NCBI RefSeq assembly: GCF_963921235.1
Contig: NC_086108.1
Span: forward strand, 16,988,001-17,052,000
Length of the DNA: 64,000 bases
Source of the DNA: Mobula hypostoma
Taxonomy: Eukaryota
Direction: 5' to 3'
A program made the position numbers and the translations under genes. Under the pieces are notes generated by a model. That model made no database searches. It was not told the DNA's origin and worked only from the letters and a program-made list of their open reading frames with translations. Shown one piece after another: positions 1,701 to 61,679 of this stretch (position 1 is the stretch's first letter; each line of letters opens with the position of its first letter).

Positions 1701-1789
1701 TAACATGATGCAAAGGTATTCTTACCCAAGGTCCAATCTTCACAATTCAGGTTCAGATGCAGTGGTTTCATATGGTGGAAATCTGAACC

Positions 1790-2268
1790 AACACAAACAA
1801 AGTGTTGAAGGAACTTAGCAAGTCAGGCAGCATCAATGGAGGAAATGAACTGTTGATGTTTCAGGTCAAGACCTCTCGTCAGGACTGGAAAAAAAGAGGG
1901 CAGAAGCCTGAGTGGGAGTGGTGGAGGACCATAAGCTGGTGGGTGATGGGTGAAAATAAGTGAGAGTAGGAAGGTGTGTGTGGGGGGGAGGTGCAGGGTA
2001 AGGGAATAATGTGAGAAGCTCAGAACAGGTAAGCAGAAGTGGCAAAGGATTTGAAGAAGAAGAAATCTCATATGGAATAAAGGGAATGAGGCAGGAAACC
2101 AGAAAAAGGAAGGTGTGGGTAATGAGTAGGGGAAGGAAGGGGGAAAGAGGCCAGAGGGATGAGGAAAAACAAAGGGGAGAGATGGAAACAGTGTTATGCA
2201 AGATAAAGAAATTGATGTTGGAGCTGTCAGGTCAGAGACTACCAAGAGTGTTGCTCCTCCAATCTGAG
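1790..2268 (-). mobile_element. Penelope-like element terminal-repeat fragment
   Basis: Reverse-complement similarity to 52520-53000, including a hammerhead-like motif at 1852-1886 and a purine-rich tract. Confidence 0.7.
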
Positions 2269-2445: not shown

Positions 2446-4082
2446 TAAAGTAAAGCTTGAGCATGTAGATATTAAGGAAGAGGTTGTCCTGGAGCTTTTG
2501 GAAAGTATCAAGTTGGATACATCACCGGGACCGGAGGAGATGTACCCCAGGCTACCGTGGGAGGTGAGGGAGGAGATTGCTGAGCCTCTAGCGATGATTT
2601 TTGCATCATCAATGGGGACGGGAGAGGCTCTGGAGGATTGGAGGGTTGTGGATATTGTTCCCTTATTCAAGAAAGGGAGCAGAGATAGCTCAGGAAATTA
2701 TAGACCAGTGAGTCTTACTTCAATGGTTGGTAAGTTGATGGAGAAGATACTGAGAGGCAGGATTTATGAACATTTGGAGAGGCATAATATGATTAGGAAT
2801 AGTCAGCATGGCTTTGTCAAAGGCAGGTGGTGCCTTATGAGCCTAAATGAATTTTTTGAGAATGTGATTAAACACATTGATGAATATAGAGCAGTAGATG
2901 TAGTGTATATGGATTTCAGCAAGGCATTTGATAAGGGACCCCATGCAAGGCTTATTGAGAAAGTAAGGAGGCATGGGATCCAAGAGGACATTGCTTTGTG
3001 GATCCAGAAGTGGCTTGCCTACAGAAGGCAAAGAGTGGTTGTAGATGGATCATATTCTGTCTGGAGGTCGGTGACCAGTGTTGTGCCTCAGAGATCTGTC
3101 CTGGGGCCCCTACTCTTTGAGGTTTTTATAAATGACCTGGATGAGGAAGTGGAGGGATGGGTTAGTAAATTTGCTGATGACACAAATGTTGGAGGTGTTG
3201 TGGATAGTGTGGAGGTCTGTCAGAGGTTACAGCGGGAGATTGATAGGATGCAAAACTGGGCTGAGAAGTGGCAGATGGAGTTCAACCCAGATAAGTGAGG
3301 CGGTTCATTTTGGTAGGTCAAATATGATGGCAGAATATAGTATTAATGGTAAGACTCTTGGCGGTGTGGAGGATCAGAGGAATCTTGGGGTCTGAGTCCA
3401 TAGAACACTCAAAGTGCAGCGCAGGTTGACTCTGTGGTTAAGAAGGCGTACGGTGCATTGGCCTTCATCGATTGTGGGATTGAGTTTAGGAGCTGAGAGG
3501 TAATGTTGCAGCTATATAGGACCCTGGTCAGGCCCCACGTGGAGTACTGTGCTCAGTTCTGGTCGCCTCACTACAGGAAGGATGTGGAAACCATAGAAAG
3601 GATGCAAAGAAGATTTACAAGGATGTTGCCTGGATTGGGGAGCATGCCTTGTGAGAATAGGTTGAGTGAACTCAGCCTTTTCTCCTTGGAGCGATGGAGG
3701 ATGAGAGGTGACCTGATGGAGGTGTATAAGGTGATAAGAGGTATTGATTGTGTGGATAGTCAGAGGCTTATTCCCAGGGCTGAAATTGTTAGCACTAGAG
3801 GGCACAATTTTAAGTTGCTTGGAAGTAGGTACAGAGGAGATATCAGGGGTAAGTTTTTTTTATGCATAGAGTGGTGAGTGCGTGGAATGGGCTGCCGTTG
3901 ATGGTGGTGGAGGCGGATGTGATAGGGTCTTTTAAGAGACTCTTGGATAGGTACATGGAGCTTAGAAAAACAGAGGGCTATGGGTAACCCTAGGTAATTT
4001 CTAAGGTAAGGACATGTTCAGTACAGCTTTGTGGGCCGAAGGGCCTGTATTGTGCTGTAGGTTTTCTATGTTTCTATGTTTT
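2446..4082 (+). mobile_element. 5'-truncated CR1 LINE; ORF2 reverse transcriptase with stops and frameshifts
   Basis: ORF 2411-3298 has GNYRPVSLTS, YMDFSKAFDK, SKFADDT; ORF 3503-3877 has LYRTLVRPHVEYC; tail TTCTATGTTTCTATG. Confidence 0.93.
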
Positions 4083-4659
4083 TAAATGCACACTCTTGAT
4101 CTTTGTCTGCAACATCCCCAGCTTACTCTGCCTCAAAGGTTTCATGGACCACAATTCCACCTGCTGCATTCGCTGCTACAACAGATGACTGTCTTTCCTT
4201 CTTTTTAGATGCCAAAGATCACAAACTTCAATAGCTTTTGGATACTAACACCTATATTGACCTTTCTTCCTCCTCTGCTTTCCTATGACCTATCTCTGCT
4301 CACCGGTTCCATCCATTGCCATGTTTTCACTATCCCCTCTGACATCAAATGAGTGATCCACAGCAGGAGTCCGTAACTCCCTGATCTGCATCTTCTTGCC
4401 TATCTACTACTTCCATCTGTCCTGCTTAATCCACAGGGCTGAATCTGAGGGTCCATTTGCCTTCTGCTTTACTTCAGCATCTCACCCTGTTTAACCTCTC
4501 ATTTTATGGCTCCTAACACTGTTACAGTGAGGCACAAAATAAGCAGCACGCCATTCTTACAAGCACCCTAATGATCATAATGTACAGACGTTCCTTTGTA
4601 GTTACTGCTGTTTCTTGTCTGCATTATTTATTTTTAAGTTATTTCTTTATAAGGTTAAC

Positions 4660-5241
4660 TTATAGGTTGAGTTGGTGGTGAAGAAGGCAAATACAATTTT
4701 AGCAAGGCTGAGGCTCTATAAGGCATTGGTCAGACCACACTTGGAGTATTGTAAGCAATTTTAGCCCCTTGTCTAAGAAAAGGTGCTAGCATTGGAGAAG
4801 GCACAGAGGAAGTTCATGAGAATGATTCTAGGAATGAAAGTGTTAACATATGAGGAGTGTTTGATGGCTCTGGGCCTGTACCTGCTGGAGTTTAGAAGAG
4901 TGACAGTATAAATACTGAAAGGCCTACACTGTGTGGATGTGGAGAGGATGTTTGCTGTAGCAGGGGAGTCTAAGAATAAAGGGACGTACGTTTAGAACAG
5001 AGATGAGAAAGAATTTCTTTAGCCAGAGAGTAGTGAATTGCCACAGATGGCTGTGGAGGCATATTGGGTATATTTAAAGCAGAGGTTGATAGGTTCTTGA
5101 TTAGTCAGAACGTCAAAGGTTATGGGGAAAAGGCAGGAGAATGAGTTTGTGAGGGGTAATAAATCAGCCATGACGGAATGACAGAGGAGACTCGATGGAC
5201 CGAGTGGCCTAATTCTACTCTTATGTTTTATGGTCTTATGA
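4660..5241 (+). mobile_element. CR1 LINE 3' fragment
   Basis: Degenerate ALVRPHLEYC-coding DNA, CR1 3' UTR and TTATG-type tail. Confidence 0.8.
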
Positions 5242-5704
5242 TGTAAGATAATGGGGTATGTAGCTTCTAGTCCTGCAAACAGAGAAGGGAATATGAATGG
5301 TGACATGCAAGCCTTCTTCCTTCTGATTGTAGAAGCTCTGGAAGTGGTTGATTGGTACCCAAAGCTTTGATAGTTTTTTTCTACACCTTGGGTGATGTTT
5401 TAAACAATTGGAAGCTGCTAAATGATATTGAATCTCATTCTGTAATATTCTTTCACCCACAAACATCCTGAGGTGGCTGCTTAAAGTGTGAAGAAAGTAG
5501 TTTGATCTTCCATGGAAACTGAAATGCAATGATAGTTGTGAATATAGACACTTGTTTGTGTTGACCTCTTAATATTGACTTCACCACCTTTGGTACTTCC
5601 ACATCATATATTTTGAAGGACTCCTGCTTCCCTTTAAGCAAAATCATGTTCAAATAATAATATAATAGATAATTTAATCTATTAATCATGTTTCAGTAAT
5701 TAGT

Positions 5705-6875
5705 GCAGTTTTTGAGGAAGTATCTAAGAAGATTGAAGGCAGGGTGGTAGATGTTATACTTAGATACCCCAGTAAGGTATATAACAAGGTATCACATGAT
5801 AGGCTGGTCAAAAATGTTAAGACATACGAAATCCAAGGCAATTTAGCGAATTGGATCCAATATTGGCTTGGTGATAAGAGGCAGAGGTAAAGTGGAAAGT
5901 TCCTTTTCTGATTTAAAGTCTGTAATCAGGGCTGAAGCATAATAATTGATGCTCAGACCTTTGTTTGTGATATAGATGAAAGACTTGGAGGTGAATGTAG
6001 GAGATAAGATTTGTAGGTTGGTTGTCGACACAAACATTGGTAGTGTGCTGGATAGTAAGGAGAGTTGTTTAAGGCTACAGTGGCAGAAAGATCAGATGAA
6101 AAGTTGCAATGAGTATTGGCAGATGAATATATCTTTATATGTATGAGGTGATGCATTTTGGGAAATCAAATAGGGACAGGACATATACATTAAATGGCAT
6201 GGCACTAAGGAATATTGATGAATGGAGAGAGACATTGGGGTTCAAGTACATAGTTCCATGAAAGTAGCAGCACAGGTAGATACAGTGTTAAAGAAGGTAA
6301 TAAGTCAGACCATAGAATATAAAAGTTGGGATGTTATGTTGTCAAATACTTGTTAGGCTGAACTTGGAGTATTATTTATAGTTCTGACTGCCACACTGTA
6401 GGAAGGATATGATTGTGCTGGAGAGAGTACAGGTGAGATTCATTGGGATGTTGCCCAGTTTGAAGCACATAGGTTATGTGGAAACAGTGAATAGGCAGGG
6501 CTTGTTTTTCCTGGAGTGAAGGAGGTCGAGCGGTAACCAGATAGAGGTAAATAAAATTAAGAGAGCAATAGATAAGAGTAGATAGAATATTTTTCCCCAT
6601 ATTTAAAAAGCAAGAGGGCATAGGTTAGAGGTGAGAGGAAGGGGTGCTAAAGGGGATTTGAGGGAAAAGTATTTTACAGAGAAGGTGTTTGATAACTGGA
6701 ATGCACTACCGGTAATACTGGTGGCATCAGATACAATCACTGTGTTTAAGAGACATTTAGGCAATAAATAAAAGGATATGGATTTAATACAGGCAAATGG
6801 GGTTAGTATGGATGGGAAAAATAGATGGACCTGGTGGAATGAAGGGCCTGATTCTATACTGCACAACATTGTGTT
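5705..6875 (+). mobile_element. Highly degenerate CR1 LINE (RT to 3' UTR)
   Basis: Collinear similarity to the CR1 copy at 10050-11280. Confidence 0.75.
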
Positions 6876-6961
6876 TCGAAGTCTCTTCTCGTTAGTCTCA
6901 TTCCATTCCCCGCTCTTATTATTTCCTTAAAATATATATCAAATTGCTAACTGAAGCGACT

Positions 6962-7603
6962 ATTAAATCTGCATTCATCACTGTCTGGGGTGATGAGGTC
7001 CTCTCCACCTCCTGCAAAAAGCACATTTGTTCATGGAAACATGAAAGTTGAGAGGTGACTGGCACAACTGGCATTTATTATGCACTGCATGGAAGTGACA
7101 AGGCTGTTGAAAGACAACCACGTGTATGGAGTCGTGTATAGGGCAGACTAATTAAATGGCATATTTTGGTACGGATATTTGCATTTTAACAGCAAACTGA
7201 CACTTTGTGATGTACCCCCAGTAATACAGTACACCCTTTATTCCAGTGTCATATAGTGTTGGATTTCTACACAGTTACTCTTCCCCTTTATCATATTTAC
7301 AGTACTCTGGCCAACTTATACTGTGACAGACCTGTTCACACCATTATTCAGTAATACGCCTTGTCCATGATTGGTGTGCTCTGATGTAAAGAGACAGCTC
7401 CTTTCTAGCTATTACTGCACCCGTGATAGAGTGACTGGTGTGAACCCAGTGTACTCCAGTGTAAATACACACAGAGACATGGAGCAACTCCCTGAATTAC
7501 ACTCTAAATTACGAAGGTCTCTCACCTTCCACATTTCCCTGAACAACTGCACTTTTTGCAGGAGGTGCAGAGGACCCCAGTGCTGATCGAATGCAGATTT
7601 AAT
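6962..7603. repeat. Degenerate inverted-repeat pair (arms 6962-7054 and 7519-7603)
   Basis: ATTAAATCTGCATTC...CCTCTCCACCTCCTGCAAAAAG...GAGAG matches the reverse complement of 7519-7603. Confidence 0.75.
7200..7480 (+). repeat. Patch of ancient ~43-bp tandem repeat
   Basis: CCAGTGTCATATAGTG, TTATACTGTGACAGACCTGT and TGTACTCCAGTGTAAATACA resemble the 28-30 kb repeat. Confidence 0.55.
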
Positions 7604-7734
7604 TGTCTATGTGCATAATGAACGTAATCTACTGCGCATCTTTCCAAGTAAAATACAGAAATCAGCTTTAAGCAACACACATCAAAGTTGCTGGTGAACG
7701 CAGCAGGCCAGGCAGCATCTATAGGAAGAGGTGC

Positions 7735-7770
7735 AGTCGACGTTTCAGGCCGAGACCCTTCGTCAGGACT
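7735..7770 (-). ncRNA. Minimal type I hammerhead ribozyme motif (PLE-associated)
   Basis: Minus strand reads AGTC-CTGACGA-AGGgtctcggCCT-GAAA-CG-TC-GACT: helix I, CUGANGA core, helix II, GAAA, vestigial helix III, GUC site. Confidence 0.75.
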
Positions 7771-7940
7771 AACTGAAGGAAGAGTGAGTAAGGGATTTGA
7801 AAGCTGGAGGGGGAGGGGGAGATGCAAAATGATAGGAGAAGACAGGAGGGGGAGGGATGGAGCCAAGAGCTGGACATATCATTTTGCATCTCCCCCTCCC
7901 CCTCCAGCTTTCAAATCCCTTACTCACTCTTCCTTCAGTT

Positions 7941-7976
7941 AGTCCTGACGAAGGGTCTCGGCCTGAAATGTCGACT
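7941..7976 (+). ncRNA. Minimal type I hammerhead ribozyme motif, GAAAC>GAAAT variant
   Basis: AGTC-CTGACGA-AGGgtctcggCCT-GAAA-TG-TC-GACT. Confidence 0.65.
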
Positions 7977-9165
7977 GCACCTCTTCCTATAGATGCTGCC
8001 TGGCCTGCTGCGTTCACCAGCAACTTTGATGTGTGTTGCTTGAATTTCCAGCATCTGCAGAATTCCTGTTGTTTGCGTTGAAATCAGCTTTAATATCTTT
8101 TTGACTTCACAAAACCTTTTAACTCCACCAGTTGACTGGGACTGTGAAACATTCTTCTGAAATTCAGTTGCCTGCTGAAATTGAAGGCCTGGTTGTCAGG
8201 AATGCAATTAGTGGGTCCACAGCAGACCCAATTTCAGTACACACTAGTGTCAAGTGTTGTGCTATTGCTCCAACTCTCCCCAATCTTTTGTGCACCTGAC
8301 CCCATCAGTACTGTTTACCAATGGAAAAGTGACAGATTGGTCAACACTGGTGCTATTATTTAGACAGACAGATATATAGATACTTTATTGATCCCAAAGG
8401 AAATTACAGTGTCACAGTAGCATTACAAGTGCACAGATATACAAATATACAAATATTAGAAGAGAAGTAAGAAAGGATAAAACATAAGCTACCACAAACA
8501 GTCTAACAGGAGGGGGTTATTACTTCCCTGGCTATAGGTTGACTCATTATGGAGCCTAATGGCTGAGAGTAAGAATGAACTCATATAGCGGTCTTTGGAG
8601 CATCACAGTTGTCCTAGTCTATTACTAAAAGTGTTCCTCTGTTCATCCAAGGTGGCATGCAGAGGGTGAGAAACACTGTCCAGCATTGCCAGGATTTTCT
8701 ATAAGGTCCTTTGATCTACCACAGCCTCCAGTGTGTTCAGTTTGACTCCTATATCAGAGCCAGCCTTTTAAATCAGTTTATTGAGCCTGTTGGCATCACT
8801 CGTGTTGATGCCATATCCCCAGCACACCAGCACATAGAAGATTGTACTAGTGACAACAGACTGGTAGAACATATGAAGGAGAGGCCTGCATACACCAAAG
8901 GACCTCAGTCTCTTCAGGAAGTAGAGGCGACACTGGTCCTTCTTGTTGGTCCTCTGTGTTGGTGCTCCACTCAGGTCTGTCATCCAAGTGCACCTCCAGG
9001 CCCTTGTAGGTCCTCATCACATCCATGTCCTCACCATCAATAGTAACAGGGAGCAGTGCAGACTTAGTCATCCTAAAGTCCATTACCATCTCCTTTGTCT
9101 TACTGATGCTGAGCTGCAGATGATTCAGCTTACACCATCTGAGAAAATCCTCCACCAGACCTTGT

Positions 9166-42323: not shown

Positions 42324-45300
42324 TTACATTAAATGAAAATATCGAATAAAAGGTCCCCAAATCTGTTCAAATTTAAATGAAGAATCATAAAGGTTACTTC
42401 TAATTTTCTCCAGATTCAAACATAAAATCGTCTGAGAAAACCAAAAAAAGGTAGTTGGAGCATTAAGCTCTTTCCAATGTTGTAAAATACATCTTTTCGC
42501 CATTAAAGTAAGAAATGCAATCATTCTACGGGCTGAAGGGGAAAGATTACTAGAAATTTTAGGTAGTCCAAAGATAGCAGTAATAGGGTGAGGAGAGATA
42601 TCTATATTTAATACCTTAGAAATAATATTGAAAATATCTCTCCAAAAAGTTTCCAAAGTAGGGCAAGACCAAAACATATGAGTTAAAGAGGCTATCTGCC
42701 CCGAACATCTATCACAGAAAGGATTAATATGCGAGTAAAAACGCGCTAACTTATCTTTGGACATATGTGCTCTATGAACCACTTTAAATTGAATTAGGGA
42801 ATGTTTAGCACAAATAGAGGAAGTATTAACTAATTGTAAAATCTGCCCCCAATCATCCACAGAAATGGTAAGCCCCAATTCCTGTTCCCAATCTACCCTA
42901 ATCTTATCAAATGGAGCTTTCCTAAGTTTCATAATAATATTATAAATCATAGCCGATGCACCTTTCTGACATGGATTAAGGTTAATTATCGAATCTAAAA
43001 TATATATAGGAGGAAGCATTGGAAAGGAAGTAAGTATAGTACTTAGGAAATTTCTAACTTGTAAATATCTAAAAAAATGTATTCTTGATAAGTTATATTT
43101 GTTAGATAATTGTTCAAAAGACATAAGGGAACCATCTAAAAATAAATCCAAAAACCGTAAAATACCCTTAGTCTTCCAAGTTTGAAAAGCGCGATCCGTG
43201 AAAGAGGGAGGAAAAAATATGTTACCTAAAATAGGAATCGCTAACCCGAATTGATTAAGATCAAAAAATTTTCTGAATTGAAACCAAATGCGCAAAGCAT
43301 ATTTAACTATCGGGTTAGAGACCTGCTTAAGACGTTTCGAATCAAAAGGAAGAGAGGAACCTAAAATAGAACCAAGTGTATAACCCTGAACAGATTGTAA
43401 TTCCAATGCTACCCATTTAGGAATAAATAGTATGTCCCGATCAAGTAACCAAAATTTCATATGTCGAATATTAATAGCCCAATAATAAAATCTAAAGTTA
43501 GGTAATGCTAAACCTCCATCTCTCTTAGCTTTCTGTAAATGTATTTTACCCAGTCTCGGGTTCTTGTTCTGCCAAATAAATGAAGAAATTTTAGAGTCAA
43601 CTTTATCAAAAAAAGATTTAGGAACGAAAATTGGTAATGCCTGAAACACATATAAAAATTTTGGCAAAAAAAACATCTTAACTGCATTAATACGACCAAT
43701 CAAAGTTAAATATAAGGGAAACCATTTAGATGAAAGTTGAGTAATATGGTCTATTAATGGTAAAAAGTTAGTCTTAAATAAATCTTTATGTTTACAAGTA
43801 ATTTTAATCCCAAGATATGAAAAGTAATTATTAATCAATTTAAATGGAAATTTATAATATAAGGGAAGATGTTTATTAATCGGAAAAAGTTCACTCTTAC
43901 TAAGATTTAATTTATAACCTGAGAAAAGACCAAATTGTGCTAATAACTCTAAAACAGCAGGAATGGATCTCTCAGGATTAGAAATATATAAAAGTAAATC
44001 ATCAGCATAGAGTGATAATTTATGGGACTTTAATCCCCGAGTTATCCCAGTAATATTTAAAGATTCTCGAATAGCAATTGCAAGAGGTTCTAATGCAATA
44101 TCAAATAATAGGGGACTAAGAGGACAGCCTTGTCGAGTACCACGAAAGAGAGGAAAAAAAGGTGAGTTTAAGGAGTTAGTACGAACCGAGGCTACAGGGG
44201 AGTAATATAACAGTTTAATCCAGGATATAAATTTCAAGCTAAAATTAAACATTTCAAGCACCTTAAATAAATAAGGCCATTCTACTCTATCAAAAGCTTT
44301 CTCGGCATCTAAAGAAATAACACACTCAGGAACATTTTGTGAGGGAGTATAAACGATATTTAACAATGTACGAATATTATAAAAAGAGTAACGACCTTTA
44401 ATAAAACCCGTTTGGTCTTCCGAAATAATAGAAGGAAGTACTTTTTCTAGTCTATTTGCTAATAACTTAGAAAAAACTTTAGAATCAACATTTAATAAAG
44501 ATATTGGTCTATAAGATGCACATTGAGCAGGGTCTTTATCCTTCTTTAGTATTAAAGAAATTGATGCTCTATTAAAAGATTCCGGAAGTTTACCAAGTTT
44601 CAAAGAAGCCTCAAAAACCTTATAGAGCCAAGGAATCAATAAAGAAGCAAAACATTTATAAAATTCAACGGTAAACCCATCAGGGCCAGGAGCTTTCCCC
44701 AGATTCATAGAAAAAATAACATTCTTAATCTCATCCATTGTAATGGAAGTATCTAATAAAGAAGACATATCCTGTGAAATCAGAGGGAAGTCTAACTTAT
44801 CTAAAAAATCATTCATATATTTAGAATCTCGAGGAGACTCTGATTGGTATAAAGAAGAATAAAAATCACAAAAGGTTTGATTAATCCCCACATGATCCAA
44901 TATCAATCGATCATTTTGGTTATAAATCTGATTGATTTGAGATTTAACATAATTAGATTTCAATTGATTAGCCAGCAGCTTGCCAATTTTATCACTGTGA
45001 ACATAAAAATCACTTCTTGTTTTCTTTAATTGGTTTACAATCGAGGACGAGAGTAGTAAACTGTGTTCCATTTGAAGTTCAGTTCTTTGTTTGTATAGCT
45101 CCTCAGAAGGAGCCATAACATATTTCTTATCAATTTCTTTAATCTTGTCCACAATTACCATCTCCTCCTGCTTCTGTTTCTTCCTCAAAGCAACGGAATA
45201 CGAAATAATCTGACCCCGAATATAGGCTTTAAAAGTGTCCCAAAGAGTGTTAACCGAAATATCTTCTGTATGGTTAATTGTAAAAAAAAGCTCAATCTGT

Positions 45301-46100
45301 TCATTCATAAAATTAACAAAGTCCGAGTCCTGAAGCAACAGCGAATTAAAACGCCATTGTCTATTGTTTGGTATATTGGCCATAATTTTAATAGAAAGCT
45401 TAAGTGGAGCATGATCCGAAATGGTTATAGAATCATAATCACATTTAATCACTGAAGAAATGAGACGAGAATCAATGAAAAAATAATCAATTCTTGAATA
45501 GGAATGATGAACATGTGAAAAGAAGGAAAAATCTTTTTCCTGAGGATGCAGAAAACGCCAAATGTCCGTCGACCCAGAATCAGAAAGGAAAAAATTAATC
45601 AAATTTGCAGATTTATTAGGTAAAGTCCGTAAAGGAGCCGAACGGTCCAAAGCTGGAGATAAACAGGTATTAAGATCTCCGCCCCAAATCAATGAAAACT
45701 CGTTCAAATTCGGAAACTGATCAAACAATGATTTATAAAATTCCGGACAATCCATATTAGGAGCATAAACATTAACCAAAACTACTTTTTTATTAAATAA
45801 TAAACCACTAACCAATAAAAATCTACCATTCGGATCAGAGATAATATCCTGTTGTATAAAAGTAACTGAGGAGTCTATAAAGATAGAGACGCCTCGAATC
45901 TTAGCATTGGAGTTCGAATGAAATTGTTGTCCCTTCCAAAATTTGAAAAAACGTAGTCTGTCCCCCCTCCGTACATGGGTCTCTTGTAAAAATAAAATTT
46001 GTGCTTTAAGTCTCCGGAACACTTTAAAAACTTTTTTCCTTTTAATAGGATGATTAAGACCATTAGTATTCCAGGAGACAAAATTAATAATAGACTCCAT
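42324..46100 (-). CDS. L1 ORF2p: APE endonuclease, reverse transcriptase, CCHC domain (1258 aa from ATG at 46100)
   Basis: SWNTNG, LQETH, NVYAPN, GDLN, SRIDY, SDH; DAEKAFD, QGCPLSP, YADD; CDRC-x8-HMFWSC; no stops or frameshifts. Confidence 0.95.
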   Translation of the reverse strand: MESIINFVSWNTNGLNHPIKRKKVFKVFRRLKAQILFLQETHVRRGDRLRFFKFWKGQQFHSNSNAKIRGVSIFIDSSVTFIQQDIISDPNGRFLLVSGLLFNKKVVLVNVYAPNMDCPEFYKSLFDQFPNLNEFSLIWGGDLNTCLSPALDRSAPLRTLPNKSANLINFFLSDSGSTDIWRFLHPQEKDFSFFSHVHHSYSRIDYFFIDSRLISSVIKCDYDSITISDHAPLKLSIKIMANIPNNRQWRFNSLLLQDSDFVNFMNEQIELFFTINHTEDISVNTLWDTFKAYIRGQIISYSVALRKKQKQEEMVIVDKIKEIDKKYVMAPSEELYKQRTELQMEHSLLLSSSIVNQLKKTRSDFYVHSDKIGKLLANQLKSNYVKSQINQIYNQNDRLILDHVGINQTFCDFYSSLYQSESPRDSKYMNDFLDKLDFPLISQDMSSLLDTSITMDEIKNVIFSMNLGKAPGPDGFTVEFYKCFASLLIPWLYKVFEASLKLGKLPESFNRASISLILKKDKDPAQCASYRPISLLNVDSKVFSKLLANRLEKVLPSIISEDQTGFIKGRYSFYNIRTLLNIVYTPSQNVPECVISLDAEKAFDRVEWPYLFKVLEMFNFSLKFISWIKLLYYSPVASVRTNSLNSPFFPLFRGTRQGCPLSPLLFDIALEPLAIAIRESLNITGITRGLKSHKLSLYADDLLLYISNPERSIPAVLELLAQFGLFSGYKLNLSKSELFPINKHLPLYYKFPFKLINNYFSYLGIKITCKHKDLFKTNFLPLIDHITQLSSKWFPLYLTLIGRINAVKMFFLPKFLYVFQALPIFVPKSFFDKVDSKISSFIWQNKNPRLGKIHLQKAKRDGGLALPNFRFYYWAINIRHMKFWLLDRDILFIPKWVALELQSVQGYTLGSILGSSLPFDSKRLKQVSNPIVKYALRIWFQFRKFFDLNQFGLAIPILGNIFFPPSFTDRAFQTWKTKGILRFLDLFLDGSLMSFEQLSNKYNLSRIHFFRYLQVRNFLSTILTSFPMLPPIYILDSIINLNPCQKGASAMIYNIIMKLRKAPFDKIRVDWEQELGLTISVDDWGQILQLVNTSSICAKHSLIQFKVVHRAHMSKDKLARFYSHINPFCDRCSGQIASLTHMFWSCPTLETFWRDIFNIISKVLNIDISPHPITAIFGLPKISSNLSPSARRMIAFLTLMAKRCILQHWKELNAPTTFFWFSQTILCLNLEKIRSNLYDSSFKFEQIWGPFIRYFHLM

Positions 46101-46818
46101 AAATCCTAAAGTCAACCCATAACAAGGAGGATTGACAATAGGCGCGACCCACAGACCCGGAGAGGAAACAGAACATACAAAAGATACCGGGGAAAAGGAC
46201 GTAACCAATACTTCAATAATGTATATAGCCCAAAGAGAAACAAACTAAAACGTGAAGCCCCTCCCACCGCCCCCCACCCCAGGACCCCAAGGCGAAATCT
46301 AAAGCAGACCCGCCAGAAAGAAGCAAGCGCTAAAACTACCCCCATGACTTCCGGTATACGCTCCCTAAAAAAAAGGTATAAATATGAAAAGGATCAGCTA
46401 ATTGTAAAACAGTAAAAAATAAGTAAAAAAAAGTTAACTCAATTAAAATACACACAGAACAGAACAAAAGCCGGAAAGTATATATTAAAAAAAACCACAA
46501 TAAACCTCAAACTCATGAATAGACACAGCAACAAAAAAAATAGGATTATTAACATAAAATGATTATAAAAAGCAAAACAGAATAAAATTTAAAAAAAACT
46601 ACAAAATTTAAGGCCGCACAGGAAATACGTAAGATGACAAAAGGGAAGTAACCACCCAGAATCCCCTGGGAAAAGAAAGAAATGACGCAGTTAAAAAGAA
46701 AGTTTAGCAGCCATATTAAGAAATCGAAAGTAAACTTTTCTGCCCAAATAGGGCACAGAAAAGTTAAAACCAACCAATTCACAGCCTCCGATCAACGGAG
46801 AAAATTAAAAAAAGGCAA

Positions 46819-47718
46819 TTAAGATGTTGAAGATGAAAGTTGATCCAGATAACTCTGGGCATCCGATGGAGAATCAAAAAAACGAAGAGCTCCATCTAAC
46901 ATGCGAATCCTTAGACGTGCAGGGTACAGCAGCGCTGGTCTTAAATCCATCTTATAGAATTCCGACATCACGGATCTGTAACGGACCCGTTGGTCCCAGA
47001 TTGGTTTACTGAAATCTTCCACGAATCGGAACTTAAGATCCGAAAAATCAATGAAACCTTTAGATCGAGCGAATCGAAACAGTCTCTCCTTATCTTGAAA
47101 GTAATGAAAACGTAAGATAACATGCCTAGGTCTATCTGACCTAGACGAATATGATGGGATTCTGTGAACACGATCCAGTAGCGGTGGTTGGTCAGGAAAT
47201 ACAGTAGGGAATGCATCTTTTAAAAGTTGAGAGAAATATTTCATAGGGTTGTTAGCTTCCACGGCTTCCCTGACGCCAATCATTCGTAAATTCTGCCGTC
47301 GCATTCTAGATTCCAAGTCAGAGTTTTTAAAAGTCAAAAAGTCAAGTTTCTTCTTCATTACATTAATTGTTTCTTCGACTTTCCCCATCTTAAGCTCACT
47401 TTGTTGCGCGGATTTTTGAAGACCAGATATAGCCGACTGATGTTCCGCAATACATGTTTGCATCTTATCAATTAAATCGGCAATTTTCTGGAACTTAGTT
47501 GAGATTTCCATATGAATCAGGTCTTTAACAAAGCCCATAATTTCTGTACGAATCATCTCCCTAACAGAGGTTGAAATTTCCCTCTGAATTAACTCCGATA
47601 TAGCTTCCAAAGTCACCGGTGATTCAGTCGGAGGGAGATCCGTAGCTTTCGGTTTAACCGGAGGTTTACCATCCTTGCCGTCTTTCCCGTTCTTAGACAT
47701 AGCAGATCTAAGTTCCAT
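46819..47718 (-). CDS. L1 ORF1p (coiled coil, RRM, C-terminal domain), 299 aa
   Basis: DLESRMRRQNLRMIGVRE, LDRVHR, PRHVILRFHYFQDKE, EDFS, LLYPARLRI; lies upstream of ORF2. Confidence 0.92.
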   Translation of the reverse strand: MELRSAMSKNGKDGKDGKPPVKPKATDLPPTESPVTLEAISELIQREISTSVREMIRTEIMGFVKDLIHMEISTKFQKIADLIDKMQTCIAEHQSAISGLQKSAQQSELKMGKVEETINVMKKKLDFLTFKNSDLESRMRRQNLRMIGVREAVEANNPMKYFSQLLKDAFPTVFPDQPPLLDRVHRIPSYSSRSDRPRHVILRFHYFQDKERLFRFARSKGFIDFSDLKFRFVEDFSKPIWDQRVRYRSVMSEFYKMDLRPALLYPARLRIRMLDGALRFFDSPSDAQSYLDQLSSSTS

Positions 47719-48459
47719 CCAATTGTCAGAGAATTCAGTTTAATTCAAAGTATTGTAAAAATTGATGCCTTAATAGTTAATTAAAGTATAGCTGACCATA
47801 GAGAGAAAAAACTCAGAGGTAATGGAGCGAGTCAAGAACGCGACTTCACTCCATGAGCGCTACCGGAAGTCTCCTATATTTTAATTGAATTCAAATTCAC
47901 CATTTTCCATGGTAGGATTCAAACTCATGTCCTCTGGGTCTCAGGATTACTGATCCATTAGTAATTACCACTACACCAAATCTAATAAACAAAGGTTCTA
48001 ATTATACTGTACCTGTAGGCTTCATTGGGCAAGCTGAGTTGCTCTCATGCCACACACCAAACACCTGAAACAGAAACATTTTCATGATCTTCCAAGGCAA
48101 GAAGTTACTAGATAGATAGAGAAAAAAAAAATTCAAGGGTCTCTTCGAAGTTCAGTCTCTTGAGTGAAGCCATCCCACCAACTACTGAGAACTCTTAGCT
48201 CATAGAAGAAGCTCACCCTTTTCCCAAACTCTTCTACCCAGCCAAGCACCCCTTGCAGAGCAGGTGGATCCCAAATTGGCTCATCAGTGAACACCAGAAT
48301 TGAAATGGGTTGCAAATAGCCCTCTATTTCAAGAGAGCACAAAGGAAGGAAGATGGCACAGTTCAGTTTGTTGCTCACTGCTGCAATGATTTTCATGTGC
48401 AAGGAGAGAAGGCTACCATCACTTTATTCATAAACTAAATATTCTCATATATCCACAAA

Positions 48460-50456: not shown

Positions 50457-50545
50457 TGTCCTGATGAGGGTTCTTGGCTCGAAACAGCAACTGCTTATTT
50501 CCCTCCGTAGATGCTGCCTGACTTGCTGAGTGTGTGTTGCTCAGA
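50457..50545 (+). mobile_element. Short Penelope-like terminal fragment with degenerate hammerhead motif
   Basis: GTC-CTGATGA-GGGttcttggCTC-GAAAC followed by AGATGCTGCCTGACTTGCTGAG. Confidence 0.65.
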
Positions 50546-51579: not shown

Positions 51580-53033
51580 GAAGCTCGTTGACTTCATTAA
51601 CTTTGCCTCCAACTTTCACCCTGCCCTCAAGTTTACCTGGTCCATTTACGACACCTCCCTCCCCTTTCTAGATCTTTCTGTCTCTATCTCTGGAGACAGC
51701 TTATCTGCTGATGTCTACTATAAGCCTACTGACTCTCACAGCTATCTGGACTATTCCTCTTCTCACCCTATCTCTTGCAAAAATGCCATCCCCTTCTCGC
51801 AATTCCTCCGTCTCCGCCACATCTGCTCTCAGGATGAGGCTTTTCATTCCAGGACGAGGGAGATGTCCTCCTTTTTTAAAGAAAGGGGCTTCCCTTCCTC
51901 CACTATCAACTCTGCTCTCAAATGCATCTCCCCCATTTCATGCACATCTGCTCTCACTGCATCCTCCTGCCACCCCACTAGGAATAGGGTTCCCCTTGTC
52001 CTCACCTACCACCCCACCAGCCTCCAGGTCCAACATATTATTCTTCGTAACTTCCACCACCTCCAGCGGGATCCCACACTAAGCACATCTTTCCCTCACC
52101 CTGTCTCTCTGCTTTCCACAAGGATCTACGCGACTCCCTTGTCCATTTATCCCCCCCATCCCTCCCCACCGATCTCCCTCCTGGCACTTATCCTTGTAAG
52201 CGGAATAAGTGCTACACATGCCCTTACACTTCCTCCCTTACCATCATTCAGGGCCCCAGACAGTCCTTCCAGGTGAGGCGACACTTCACCTGTGAGTCAG
52301 CTGGGGTGATGTACTGCATCCGGTGCTCCCGATGTAGCCTTCTATATATTGGCAAGACCTGATGCAGACTGGGAGATCATTTCGCTAAACACCTACGCTC
52401 TGTCCGCCAGAGAAAGCAGGATCTCCCAGTGACCGCACATTTTAATTCCACGTCCCATTCCCATTCTGATATATCTATCAACGGCCTCCTCTACTGTGGA
52501 GATGAAGCCACAGTCAGGTTGGAGGAACAACACCTTATATTCCATCTGGGTAGCGTCCAGCCTGATGGCATGAACATTGATTTCTCTAACTTCTGCTAAT
52601 GCCCCACCTCCCCCTCGTACCCCATCCGTTATTTATGTACACTCATTCTTTCTCTCTCTCTCCTTTTCCTCCCTCTTTCCCTCTGACTATACCCCTTGCC
52701 CATCCTCTGGGTTTTCCCCCCCTCCCCCTTTTCTTTCTCTCTGGGCCTCCTGTCCCATGATCCTCTCATATCCCTTTTGCCAATCAACTGTCCAGCTCTT
52801 GGCTCCATCCCTCCCCCTCCTATCTTCTCCTATCATTTTGGATCTCCCCCTTCCCCTCCCACTTTCAAATCTCTTACTAGCTCTTCTTTCAGTTAGTCCT
52901 GATGAAGGGTCTTGGCCCGAAATGTCGACTGTACCTCTTCCTAGAGATGCTGCCTGGCCTGCTGTGTCCACCAGCAACTTTGATGTGTGTTGCTTGAATT
53001 TCCAGCATCTGCAGAATTCCTTGTGTTTGCGTT
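51580..53033 (+). mobile_element. 5'-truncated Penelope-like element: RT C-terminus, GIY-YIG endonuclease, terminal repeat
   Basis: NFHPALKFT, LPFLD, VYYKPTDSHSYLDYSSSHP; GVMYCIRCSRCSLLYIGKT at ~52304-52360; terminal repeat nearly identical to 7877-8079. Confidence 0.92.
52895..52930 (+). ncRNA. Minimal hammerhead ribozyme motif in the PLE terminal repeat
   Basis: AGTC-CTGATGA-agggtcttggccc-GAAA-TG-TC-GACT. Confidence 0.6.
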
Positions 53034-57984: not shown

Positions 57985-59796
57985 AGTATTTTGCATTAGT
58001 TTTCACTGTGGAAGACATTAGCAGTGTGATGGAAGTTCCAGGTGTCAGGGGGCATGAAGTGTGTGAAGTTACCATAACTAGAAAGAAGGTTCTTGGGACA
58101 CTTAAAGGTCTGATGCTGTACACCACAGGGTTCTGAAGAAGGTTGTTGAAGAGATCATGGAAGCATTAGTATTGATCTTTCAAGAATCACTAGATTCTGG
58201 AATGGCTCCAGAAGACTAGAAAATTGCAAATCTTACTCCACTCTTCAAGAAGGGAGAGAACCAGTTAGCCTGACCTTAATAGTTCGGAAGATGTTGGAGT
58301 CGATTATTAAGCATGAGGTCTCAGGGTACACATGATAAAACAGGCTGTAGTTAACGTGGTTTCCTCAAAGGAAAATCTTCCTTGACAAATCTGTTGGAAT
58401 TCTTTGAAGAAATAACAAGCTGAGTAGGCAAAGGAGAATCGGTCGATGTTGTGTACTTGGATTTTCAGAAGGCCTTTGACAAAGGGCCACACATGAGACT
58501 GCTTAACAAGCTACAAGCCCATGGTATTACAGGAAAGATTCCAGCATGAATAAAACAGTGGCTGATTGGCAGAGGCAAAGAGTGGGAATAAAGGGAGCAC
58601 TTTCTGGTTGGCTGCTGGTGACTAGTGGTGTTCCACATGGGTCTGTTGGGACCGATTCTTTTTGCGTTATATGTCAATGATTTGGATGATGGAATTGATG
58701 ACTTTGTTGCAAAGGTTGCAGAAAATATGAAGATAGATGGAGGGGCAAATAGTTTTGAGAAAGTAAATCGTCTACAGAAGACTATCTAGATTAGGAGATC
58801 GGGGGAAAATGGCAGGTGGAATAGTGTCAGGAAGTGTATGGTCATGTACTTTGATAGAAGAAATGAAAGGGTTGACTATTGCTAAATGGAGAGAAAATAC
58901 AAAAAACTGAAGTATTAAGGGACTTGGGAGTCCTTGTGCAAGATTCCCTGAAGGTTAATTTGCAGGTTGAGTCTGTGGTGAGGAAGGCAAATGTGATGGC
59001 AACATTAATTTCAAGAGAACTAGAATATAAAAGCAAGGATATATTGTTGAAACTTTATAAAGCACTGGTGAGGCCTCACTTGGAGTATTGTGAGCAGTTT
59101 TGTGCCTCTTATTTTAGAAAGAATGTGCAAAAACTGGAGAGGGTGAAAGAAGTGTCACAAAAATGATTCCAGGATTGAATGAGGTACAGTCGACGTTTCA
59201 GGCCGAGACCCTTCATCCTGACAAAGGGTCTCGGCCTGAAACGTCGACTGTACCTCTTCCTAGAGATGCTGCCTGGCCTGCTGCGTTCACCAGCAACTTT
59301 GATGTGTGTTGCTTGAATTTCCAGCATCTGCAGAATCCCTGTTGTTTGTTCCAGGATTGAATGGCTTATCATATGAAGAGCATTTGATGGCTCTGGGCCT
59401 GTATTCACTAGAATTCTGAAGATTGAGGGGTGACCTCATTGAAACCTATCAAATGGTGAAAGGCTTTAATTAAGTGGATGTGAAGAAGATGTTTCCTGTG
59501 GTGGGAGAGTCTAAGCCCAGAGGACACAGCCTCAGAATAGAGGTGTGTCCTTTGGAGATGAGGAGGAATTTCTTTAACTGAGAGTGATGAATCGGTGAAA
59601 TTCTTCACCACAGGCAGATGTGGATCTCAAGTCTTTATGTATATTTAAGGCAGTGGTTGATACATTCTTGATTGGTCAAGGAATGAAGGGATATGGGGAG
59701 AATGCAGGAGATTGGGGCTGAGAGGAAAATTGGATCAGCCACGATGAAATGGTGGAGACTCGATGGGCCAAAAAACCTAATTCTGCTCCTATATGT
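57985..59796 (+). mobile_element. Degenerate CR1 LINE (ORF2 and 3' UTR) containing a PLE micro-insertion
   Basis: DFQKAFDK-coding DNA; RDLGVLVQDSLKVNLQV...LVRPHLEYC; CR1 3' UTR. Confidence 0.9.
59182..59348 (+). mobile_element. 167-bp Penelope-like micro-insertion with 5' inversion and 15-bp TSD
   Basis: TTCCAGGATTGAATG at 59167-59181 and 59349-59363; perfect 33-bp inverted arms 59181-59213 and 59224-59256. Confidence 0.92.
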
Positions 59797-60489: not shown

Positions 60490-61679
60490 ATTGAGTCAAG
60501 GAGTCATACAACATTGTAACGTCTTATTCCTTTGGCCTGCTATTTCCATGCCAGTAGTCAGTTATCAATCTGTACTAATCTGATTTACCAGCGCTTACAC
60601 TGTAGTACCTTGGCAATTCAAGTAGTTCTTTAGTTACTTCCAAATGTCTCGAGATACTACCTCCATCATTCCAGATACCAACCATCATCTGGAAGAAGAA
60701 TTCTTCTTAGATCCCCTTCAGACTGCTTAACCTTACTCTTAACCAATGTCTTCTTTTGACAGCAGCATGGTGATGTTTCCTGCTATCTAACCTCTCTATG
60801 TCCCTCAAAATTTTGAATATCTCTGTCAGATCTCCCCTCAGCCTCCTTTGCTCCAAGAGAAAACCAGACTACTTCGCCAAGCACCTATGCTCTGTCCACC
60901 AGAACAAGTGGAATCTCCCAGAGGCCGATGTAGATTGCGAGACTGCTTCGCCAAGCACCCATGCTCTATCCACCAGAAAAAGTGGGATCTCCCAGTGGCT
61001 ATTCATTTCAATTCCACTTCCCATTCCCATTCCGATATGTCCATCAATGGCCTCTTCCACTGTCGTGATGAGGCGACACTTAGGTTGGCGGAACAACACC
61101 TTATGTTCCATTTGGGTAGCCTCCAACCTGATGGCACGAACATCGATTTCTCAAACTTCTGGTAATCCTCCGCTTCAACATTTCCCTCTCTCACCTTATC
61201 TCCTTGGCCACCCATCACCTCCCTCTGGTGGTCCTCCCCCCTTTTCTTTCTTCCATGGCCTTCTCTCGCTTTCACTAATCAACTTCCCAGCTCTTTACTT
61301 CATCCCTCCCCCTCCACCTGGTGGTTCTCCCTCCCCTCCCCCACCTTTTAAATCTTTTTTTTCTCCAGTCTCGTCGAAGCCTTTTGGCCTGAAACTGTAT
61401 TATTTTCCTAGATGCTGCCTGGCCTGCTGAGTTTCTCCAGGATTTTATGTGTGTTTCTTAGATTTCCAGCATCTGCAGATTTTCTCTTGTTTGTGATTGG
61501 AAAACCAGATCTTCTAGATTTTTCTCATAGCTGAGTTTCCACCCTGGGTATCATCGTGGTGAATATCCTGTGCACCCTCTCCTGTGCAATCACATCCTTT
61601 CTATATTGTACAGTCAGTAAGTTCACACAGTGCTCAAGTTAAGGCCTAAGCATTGGTTTATAAAAATGCTATAACCTCT
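60490..61679 (-). mobile_element. Old CR1 3' fragment interrupted by a PLE
   Basis: TCAGATCTCCCCTCAGCCTCCTTTGCTCCAAGAGAAAA before the PLE; CR1-like sequence resumes at 61500. Confidence 0.6.
60866..61499 (+). mobile_element. Penelope-like 3' fragment with 5' partial tandem duplication and 10-bp TSD
   Basis: HFNSTSHSHSDMS...EQHLMFHLGSLQPDGTN; GAAAACCAGA at 60859-60868 and 61500-61509. Confidence 0.85.

Follow-up and report, generated by a model that had tools for sequence, protein, structure and literature searches.

Minimal hammerhead motifs in a head-to-head insertion of Penelope-like element ends in Mobula hypostoma

The window analyzed here is a stretch of 64,000 nucleotides of the Mobula hypostoma genome (assembly GCF_963921235.1, contig NC_086108.1, forward-strand positions 16,988,001 to 17,052,000). 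Its long hairpin is a single 408-base insertion (7672-8079) consisting of two back-to-back 5′-truncated ends of a Penelope-like element (PLE), flanked by a 14-bp target-site duplication (7658-7671 and 8080-8093), the left copy of which was also read directly. Element positions are numbered from the predicted hammerhead cut (GUC|GAC), +1 being the first base past it and helix I beginning at -32, and positions within the hammerhead follow the customary scheme. The left piece is an inverted, tail-less element end on the minus strand (7672-7876, element about +67 to -138), and the right piece is a forward, tailed end (7877-8079, plus strand, element -96 to about +107), which terminates in a one-sided 40-bp tail (8040-8079, plus strand) matching the first codons of the open frame of L043, a tandem copy of the element. 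A fold-back of one cDNA was ruled out, because the tail-less arm reaches farther 5′ (-138) and the other arm farther 3′ (+107). The 42-nt “loop” (7835-7876) is element sequence without a partner, being the extra reach of the left piece. Judged from this arrangement, the hairpin is an instance of the published Penelope pattern, in which an inverted 5′-truncated copy is combined with a one-sided tail.

The arms (7667-7834 and 7877-8044) show two differences, at 7669, which lies inside the target-site duplication, and at 7742/7969, which is a CpG transition at the C of GAAAC-G. The earlier note's statement that the arms have a single mismatch, at this CpG, is true within the insertion proper (163 bp of arm), and the presence of one difference in 163 paired bases indicates that the insertion is recent. 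Across inverted pairs, arms agreed at 66 of 73 diagnostic positions, compared with 53% in random pairs; of the 16 informative pairs, 12 agreed fully and 4 differed. The inverted arms differ at 2 of 5 diagnostic sites at locus L244 and at 4 of 5 at locus L274; they thus represent distinct subfamily haplotypes, and two templates were likely used in some insertions. The 12 bases AGATGCTGCCTG 3′ of the ribozyme (7991-8002, plus strand) are kept in old and young subfamilies, although the preceding stretch differs; the anchor itself was part of the filter by which this conservation was seen. AGATGCTGCCTG is possibly a protein-binding or start signal.

Each arm contains a hammerhead motif. The motif on the minus strand (7735-7770) reads AGTC-CTGACGA-AGGGTCTCGGCCT-GAAA-CG-TC-GACT and comprises helix I (AGUC/GACU), CUGACGA, a bulged A, helix II (GGGU/GCCU) closed by a CUCG loop, and GAAACGUC, with the predicted cut between 7739 and 7738. 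The motif on the plus strand (7941-7976) is the same except for GAAA-TG-TC, i.e. GAAATGTC, owing to the CpG transition of C15.2 to U at 7969. Both were read directly at the positions reported in the earlier note. The core of 7735-7770 (minus strand) has the type I order (CUGAnGA ... GAAA ... UH), and helix III is reduced to a palindrome, which is ACGU in the minus copy and an imperfect AUGU in the plus copy; the change at 7969 thus spoils the ACGU palindrome required for a dimer. There are zero bases between 15.2 and 16.2 in GAAACGUC, as in the definition of the minimal hammerhead ribozyme (min-HHR) in PMC4209133, and the motif lies in the terminal repeat in the sense orientation of an open reading frame (ORF) for reverse transcriptase (RT) and endonuclease. 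The motifs are therefore minimal type I hammerheads (CUGAnGA...GAAACGUC, without loop 3) of a Neptune-like Penelope terminal repeat, in agreement with the assignment to PLE terminal repeats made earlier.

With a strict descriptor, in which the bulge was disallowed, the window yielded 2 motifs and none of 100 shuffles yielded any; a loose descriptor found a mean of 0.16 motifs per shuffle. An Rfam scan of the window yielded no hammerhead among 23 matches at E≤1, all of which were below the gathering score. These sub-threshold matches were mostly to miRNA-hairpin models; an miRNA identity was rejected, since they merely mirror the long hairpin.

Further Penelope pieces are scattered over the window. 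An old, decayed motif with a broken helix I (GAAACATC, 1851-1886, minus strand) belongs to an element end (1769-1886, minus strand) that is 72% identical, and another (GAAACAGC, 50457-50492, plus strand) has lost U16.1. The piece at 51584-53033 (plus strand) is a 5′-truncated and frameshifted 3′ part of an autonomous element, comprising the RT end, a Cys linker, the endonuclease domain, 3′ UTR, terminal repeat and tail; its hammerhead (52895-52930, plus strand) is sense to the ORF and keeps G10.1-C11.1, but contains GAAATGTC. A second, smaller fold-back insertion (59167-59363), delimited by a 15-bp target duplication (59167-59181 and 59349-59363), contains a plus-strand motif (59214-59249) with G8 changed to A and no 5′ strand of helix I, and a minus-strand motif without the core start. 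The relatives listed previously at 1852-1886 (minus), 50458-50490 (plus) and 52895-52930 (plus), and the broken ones at 59188-59250, were accordingly found in place. An older 3′ piece (60925-61493, plus strand), with an endonuclease remnant, UTR and tail, adds a heavily decayed motif near 61367-61400 that was absent from that list. Among the motifs listed earlier, only the minus copy at 7735-7770 has an intact core. Other repeats in the window include a tandem array starting at about 12640 (28-bp period, about 416 copies) and an L1-like element (42324-47739, minus strand) with a 306-codon frame carrying an ORF1 domain and an unbroken 1306-codon frame carrying endonuclease, RT and zinc-binding domains.

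Helix II had been drawn as AGG/CCT in the earlier note, a register that did not hold. Predicted pair probabilities were 0.86-0.95 for a bulged A followed by GGGU/GCCU and 0.02 for AGG/CCU, and in a comparison of 12 rows across families 95.8% of cells were paired in the bulged helix II (89.4% in helix I), compared with 52.8% for AGG/CCT; the register is thus a bulged A plus GGGU/GCC(C/U). Both-sided changes occurred in 6 of 8 pairs, and covariation was 0.919; shuffles gave 0.333 (0 of 500), and slid controls no more than 0.199. The 12 rows were hand-picked (10 of 30 longer-stem loci and the 2 window copies), and related rows count repeatedly. Helix II reached at least 3 bp in 16 of the 30 longer-stem loci with the bulge and in 1 of 30 without it. 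Many longer-stem matches are due to chance, since the search returned 2,630 against 1,575 for the control, and a protein match to the element lay within 1.5 kb at 3 of the 30 loci. Ten loci (L114, L117, L119, L120, L123, L126, L129, L133, L135 and L141; about 1497-1539 in each) show that the same minimal core, with a different, longer helix II and a different helix I, is carried by no fewer than three further repeat families of this genome; a Penelope link of the ten loci consists of weak protein matches at two of them only.

Covariation is thus seen between families. The variation among the window's own copies (AGG/CCT, GGG/CTC), which had been taken to preserve pairing, was rejected as covariation because it reflects decay: 14 of 25 young motifs but 1 of 31 old ones retain an intact core, and the GGG/CTC of 50458 occurs in a copy without U16.1. 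Between old and young subfamilies, the majority base agrees at 33 of the 36 positions of the motif, compared with 3 of 14 upstream positions, which points to selection in the source elements, with the qualification that motifs were picked by likeness and the low-complexity flanks compared ungapped. Among young copies, 52 of 63 have U at position 11.1, whereas 18 of 31 old motifs have C there. Both hairpin copies form a G-U wobble at 10.1-11.1 (7747, minus, and 7964, plus) in place of the G-C pair of the older form. U11.1 is likely a CpG change that became fixed in a source element. Because it makes the conserved G10.1-C11.1 pair weaker, degeneration of the ribozyme may be under way in the lineage that has been most successful. 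The 4-bp ACGU duplex was calculated at -1.7 kcal/mol, compared with -7.5 for a competing GUCGAC duplex; the predicted monomer fold favors pairing of the core, and the motif folded no better than its own shuffles (z -0.37).

The terminal repeat is abundant. The 36-base motif of the minus strand occurs 32,886 times in identical form in the 3.48-Gb genome; the core pattern has 77,039 exact matches (38,492 + 38,547) against 3 (1 + 2) for a reversed control, and a 24-base anchor of the young subfamily (+34..+57) has 86,597. A 600-kb evenly spaced sample contained 86 places resembling the element end. At L043, which is arranged in tandem, two motifs at a distance of 3,512 bp enclose an open frame of 935 codons, so that the motif occurs twice per tandem unit. 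In this 3.5-kb unit, the motif stands about 60 bases 5′ of the open frame encoding the RT; the frame shifts ahead of the endonuclease, which continues in another frame with a C-x4-C-x2-C linker. The element query was likewise frameshifted between the domains, which biases the loci recovered. The L043 frame matched RVT_1 weakly (E 4e-5, below the curated cut-off). Among named homologues, the nearest come from the bamboo shark Chiloscyllium punctatum (72% and 69%); PF00078 together with PF01541, which is the GIY-YIG domain, occurs in many homologues. The window segment 52075-52575 aligned to the C-terminus of a PF01541-type homologue (E 1.6e-73) and includes the same C-x4-C-x2-C linker; a direct Pfam scan of this endonuclease piece returned no family, and a PDB sequence search with the ORF returned no match.

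A CX2-5CxxC linker between RT and endonuclease, present in this form in both L043 and the window, is common to Neptune, Nematis and Naiad (PMC8557442). Together with the PF01541 homologues and the homology to the bamboo shark proteins, the linker suggests that the parent is an endonuclease-bearing, Neptune-like Penelope element, the clade being assigned by the Cys linker, and it is likely to be an element of cartilaginous fish. The hallmarks of endonuclease-bearing PLEs were all present, namely partial tandems, an inverted 5′-truncated copy, a one-sided 30-40-bp tail and a target duplication.

The ends of inserted pieces were scored in the first 100 matches to the young anchor, from the first 3 Mb of one contig, and in a second sample of 17 pieces from 730 kb of evenly spaced sequence. 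In the sample of 100, the 3′ ends fell into two groups, 57 at +57..+75 and 42 at +89..+113 (fixed points at about +65 and +102). Neighbors were inverted in 49 cases and direct in 7, and all 42 scored inverted neighbors combined a tailed with a tail-less piece (pairs being counted from both sides). The two 3′-end groups and the inverted pairing fit the two internal RT start sites and the two-strand priming demonstrated in vitro for PAc, a Poseidon element of Anolis carolinensis (PMC11167929). The predicted cut site was read through in 88 of the 100 young pieces, whereas 2 begin at the cut and 10 begin later; of the 90 pieces that reach +1, 2 stop there. The density of 5′ ends rose from 0.0013 per base over -500..-61 to 0.015 over -60..-21 and to 0.032 over -35..-28, where 17 events produce a pile-up of about 25 times background at the 5′ edge of the motif. 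The evenly spaced sample agreed, with 3 of 17 pieces having their 5′ end in -60..-21 (p 0.012, small sample), and loose ends at -34..-30 with unrelated flanks are listed in contigs of 3 of 4 public runs, the RNA origin of these contigs being only guessed. Because 88 of 100 pieces read through the cut and 5′ ends gather at the motif edge, the copied RNA is likely to have been mostly uncut and to have begun at this edge.

The start region presumably resembles an initiator (CAGTT / TTAGTC). A branch-point-like sequence and a pyrimidine tract ending in CAG (7919-7940, plus strand) directly precede helix I and could be a 3′ splice site or an initiator; the former would be a likeness to D. virilis Penelope. 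No GT..AG joint to the start of helix I was found among the 15 and the 6 joints listed, and no upstream exon common to truncated copies was found.

As a whole, these observations led us to propose a mechanism. The RNA of the element would begin at or just 5′ of helix I, and the element protein would prime reverse transcription on both nicked target strands at two internal start sites. Where it used those sites that lie closest to the RNA's 5′ end, RT would run off after 100-160 bases and leave tiny ribozyme-bearing stumps, which would be joined by microhomology. Selection would keep the ribozyme in source elements, although it would usually make no cut before copying. Cleavage would most likely occur only when the element protein holds two motifs together (ACGU with ACGU), a protein-dependent step that we postulate from the protein-assisted cleavage shown for PAc (PMC11167929) and the low dimer activity reported in PMC4209133. 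By removing the capped first 32-36 bases, cleavage would limit expression or end the life of the RNA, and would thus serve for decapping or clean-up, once copying is over or independently of it; inserted copies would decay neutrally. Some 10^5 stump ends might then map the life of the RNA, with starts at the first bases of helix I in usually uncut molecules and about 1% of ends, which start at the cut or skip from cut to core, recording cleavage in vivo. That the ribozyme is a protein-triggered decapping switch and not a maker of unit-length templates is a conjecture from the pattern of ends, and one that may well prove wrong.

A different reading of the same ends is that some of the template RNA has already been cleaved by the ribozyme when reverse transcription begins, in which case copies starting at +1 would be cleavage fossils from living animals. 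In genome-wide exclusion patterns, four foreign bases stand right before +1 in 399 copies, compared with 198 at +6 (about half of these being small indels by eye) and 104 at -8 (where the filter passes 0.21 of random flanks, not 0.32). Within -4..+8, breaks fall most often at +1 (in 9 of 30 loci by script and, by eye, in 23 of the 100 rows listed), and in 15 of 100 rows GUCCU is joined straight to +1, as though RT had jumped the cut. However, at least 37 of 100 rows at +1 (22 TCAG, 15 TCCT) have GAC(T) in common with a different part of the motif, so that microhomology alone could favor this position. A similar class exists at -4 (4 of 30), which requires an uncut template, 5 of 30 inspected loci are small indels and not truncations, and breaks are denser in helix II (2,723 in -21..-8) than in -4..+8 (1,361). 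Among unbiased pieces, a start at +1 occurs in only 2 of the first 100 and in 0 of the 17 from the evenly spaced sample. A strong pile-up of 5′ ends at the cut site was rejected, the excess being only modest and confounded by microhomology, and we consider precopying cleavage rather unlikely. The recurrent junction of those 15 rows, in which the core start is joined directly to the base after the cut, was noted at L152, L163, L164, L171 and L172, and in other junctions the two strands of helix I are joined directly; such junctions could arise either from RT skipping the folded domain or from RT jumping a cut.

Alternatively, the motif might be a structural or protein-binding signal, or a passenger, that does not cleave in the dominant subfamilies, and the 5′ ends might result from RT stalling or template switching on the 36-nt hairpin instead of marking the RNA start. 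The prevalence of U at 11.1 in young copies, the pairing of the core in the predicted monomer fold and the use of microhomology inside the motif by many junctions are all consistent with this view, as are the reports that hammerhead-less elements proliferate well (PMC8557442) and that ribozyme mutants are unimpaired in insertion in vitro (PMC11167929). On the other hand, none of the catalytic positions, of which several lie in CpG sites, differs in majority base between old and young subfamilies. The ends gather on the far (5′) side of the structure and not at +4/+5, where RT meets it first, and 7 pieces end at -33..-29 without an inverted partner and with unrelated flanks. We therefore hold a noncleaving role to be doubtful.

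At this locus, activity is improbable. In read-through RNA of either strand, the 163-bp duplex (MFE about -360 kcal/mol) leaves helices I and II with probabilities of 0.00, in the full-length as well as the nascent chain, and each ribozyme is predicted not to fold because its own antisense arm is transcribed first. In contrast, helices I and II form with a probability of about 0.7 in an isolated minus-arm RNA (-36 to +68). The designation of the minus copy as the best candidate for activity thus stood insofar as it has the only intact core among the motifs listed, but would apply only to a transcript starting inside the arm; moreover, with 32,886 identical copies in the genome, nothing singles it out. 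That 7735-7770 (minus strand) is an active ribozyme here, for which its intact core, the predicted folding of the arm alone and the 138 retained bases 5′ of the cut, which might hold a promoter, could be adduced, is very improbable in view of the masking duplex, of a partner motif that sits on the opposite strand and is mutated, and of the absence of in vitro cleavage by a monomer of the same class reported in PMC4209133. Both hairpin motifs are likely inactive, masked by their mirror-image arms according to the fold predictions. With considerable confidence, then, the motifs can be described as the minimal type I hammerhead of an abundant PLE terminal repeat, and the hairpin as a recent double-stump insertion in which both are predicted to be masked and are likely inactive.

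Hammerheads in Penelope terminal repeats and inverted stumps are already known, and the genome holds tens of thousands of loci like this one. The role of the hammerhead in PLEs has been called unclear (PMC8557442), and PMC11167929 reports that no reads ending at the cut were found. With some 87,000 exact matches to the young anchor, this role can be tested by counting ends. The counts favor uncut templates and an RNA start at the motif edge, and argue against a model in which cleavage makes the template.

A literature search found no description of the motif in sharks or rays, where Lunse et al. (2017), outside that search, may list it, and none of inverted Penelope-like ends in elasmobranchs; two supplements of PMC4209133 that were searched contained no shark or skate terms. 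Small PLE hammerheads with a very short palindromic stem III and dimer cleavage were described by Lunse, Weinberg and Breaker (2017), as summarized in PMC6765202 and PMC6466107. The insertion is not a non-LTR retrozyme, which would consist of head-to-tail tandem non-coding units with a hammerhead, because the hairpin is head-to-head with a target duplication and neighbors are direct in 7 and inverted in 49 cases per 100. PMC4209133 (Cervera and De la Pena 2014) describes the min-HHR of metazoan PLEs, including fish Xena, Poseidon and Neptune elements. The M. hypostoma motif shares its type I order, conserved-only core without loop 3, palindromic 15.2-16.2 and 4-5-bp helix I, as well as the unpaired base between 9 and 10.1, noted there as an unpaired base after A9. 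A G10.1-C11.1 pair is also noted in that article. The thousands of dispersed solo copies and the opposite-strand pairs 100-700 bp apart are also alike. It differs in that helix II has 4 bp, compared with 7-8 bp in the Schistosoma motifs, that the partner of G10.1 is U in the dominant subfamilies, and that the copy number is about 10 times the 4,000-9,000 reported for coelacanth and Xenopus.

The accessible parts of PMC8557442 and PMC3846280 describe inverted-pLTR-plus-tail units of endonuclease-bearing PLEs, which likewise have an adjacent inverted 5′-truncated copy, a short target duplication, partial tandems and a 30-40-bp tail on one side only. In M. hypostoma, by contrast, many units measure only 100-400 bases and have 5′ ends that gather at the motif's 5′ edge, a clustering of which no description was found in those parts. 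PAc (Frangieh et al. 2024, PMC11167929) resembles the M. hypostoma element in having a hammerhead at the junction of repeat and ORF, two internal RT start sites that define the tail, cutting and extension of both target strands, and unprocessed RNA as the main template. The two elements appear to belong to different clades, the Cys linker suggesting a Neptune-like affiliation for that of M. hypostoma, and the PAc frame begins inside helix II, whereas that of M. hypostoma begins past the motif.
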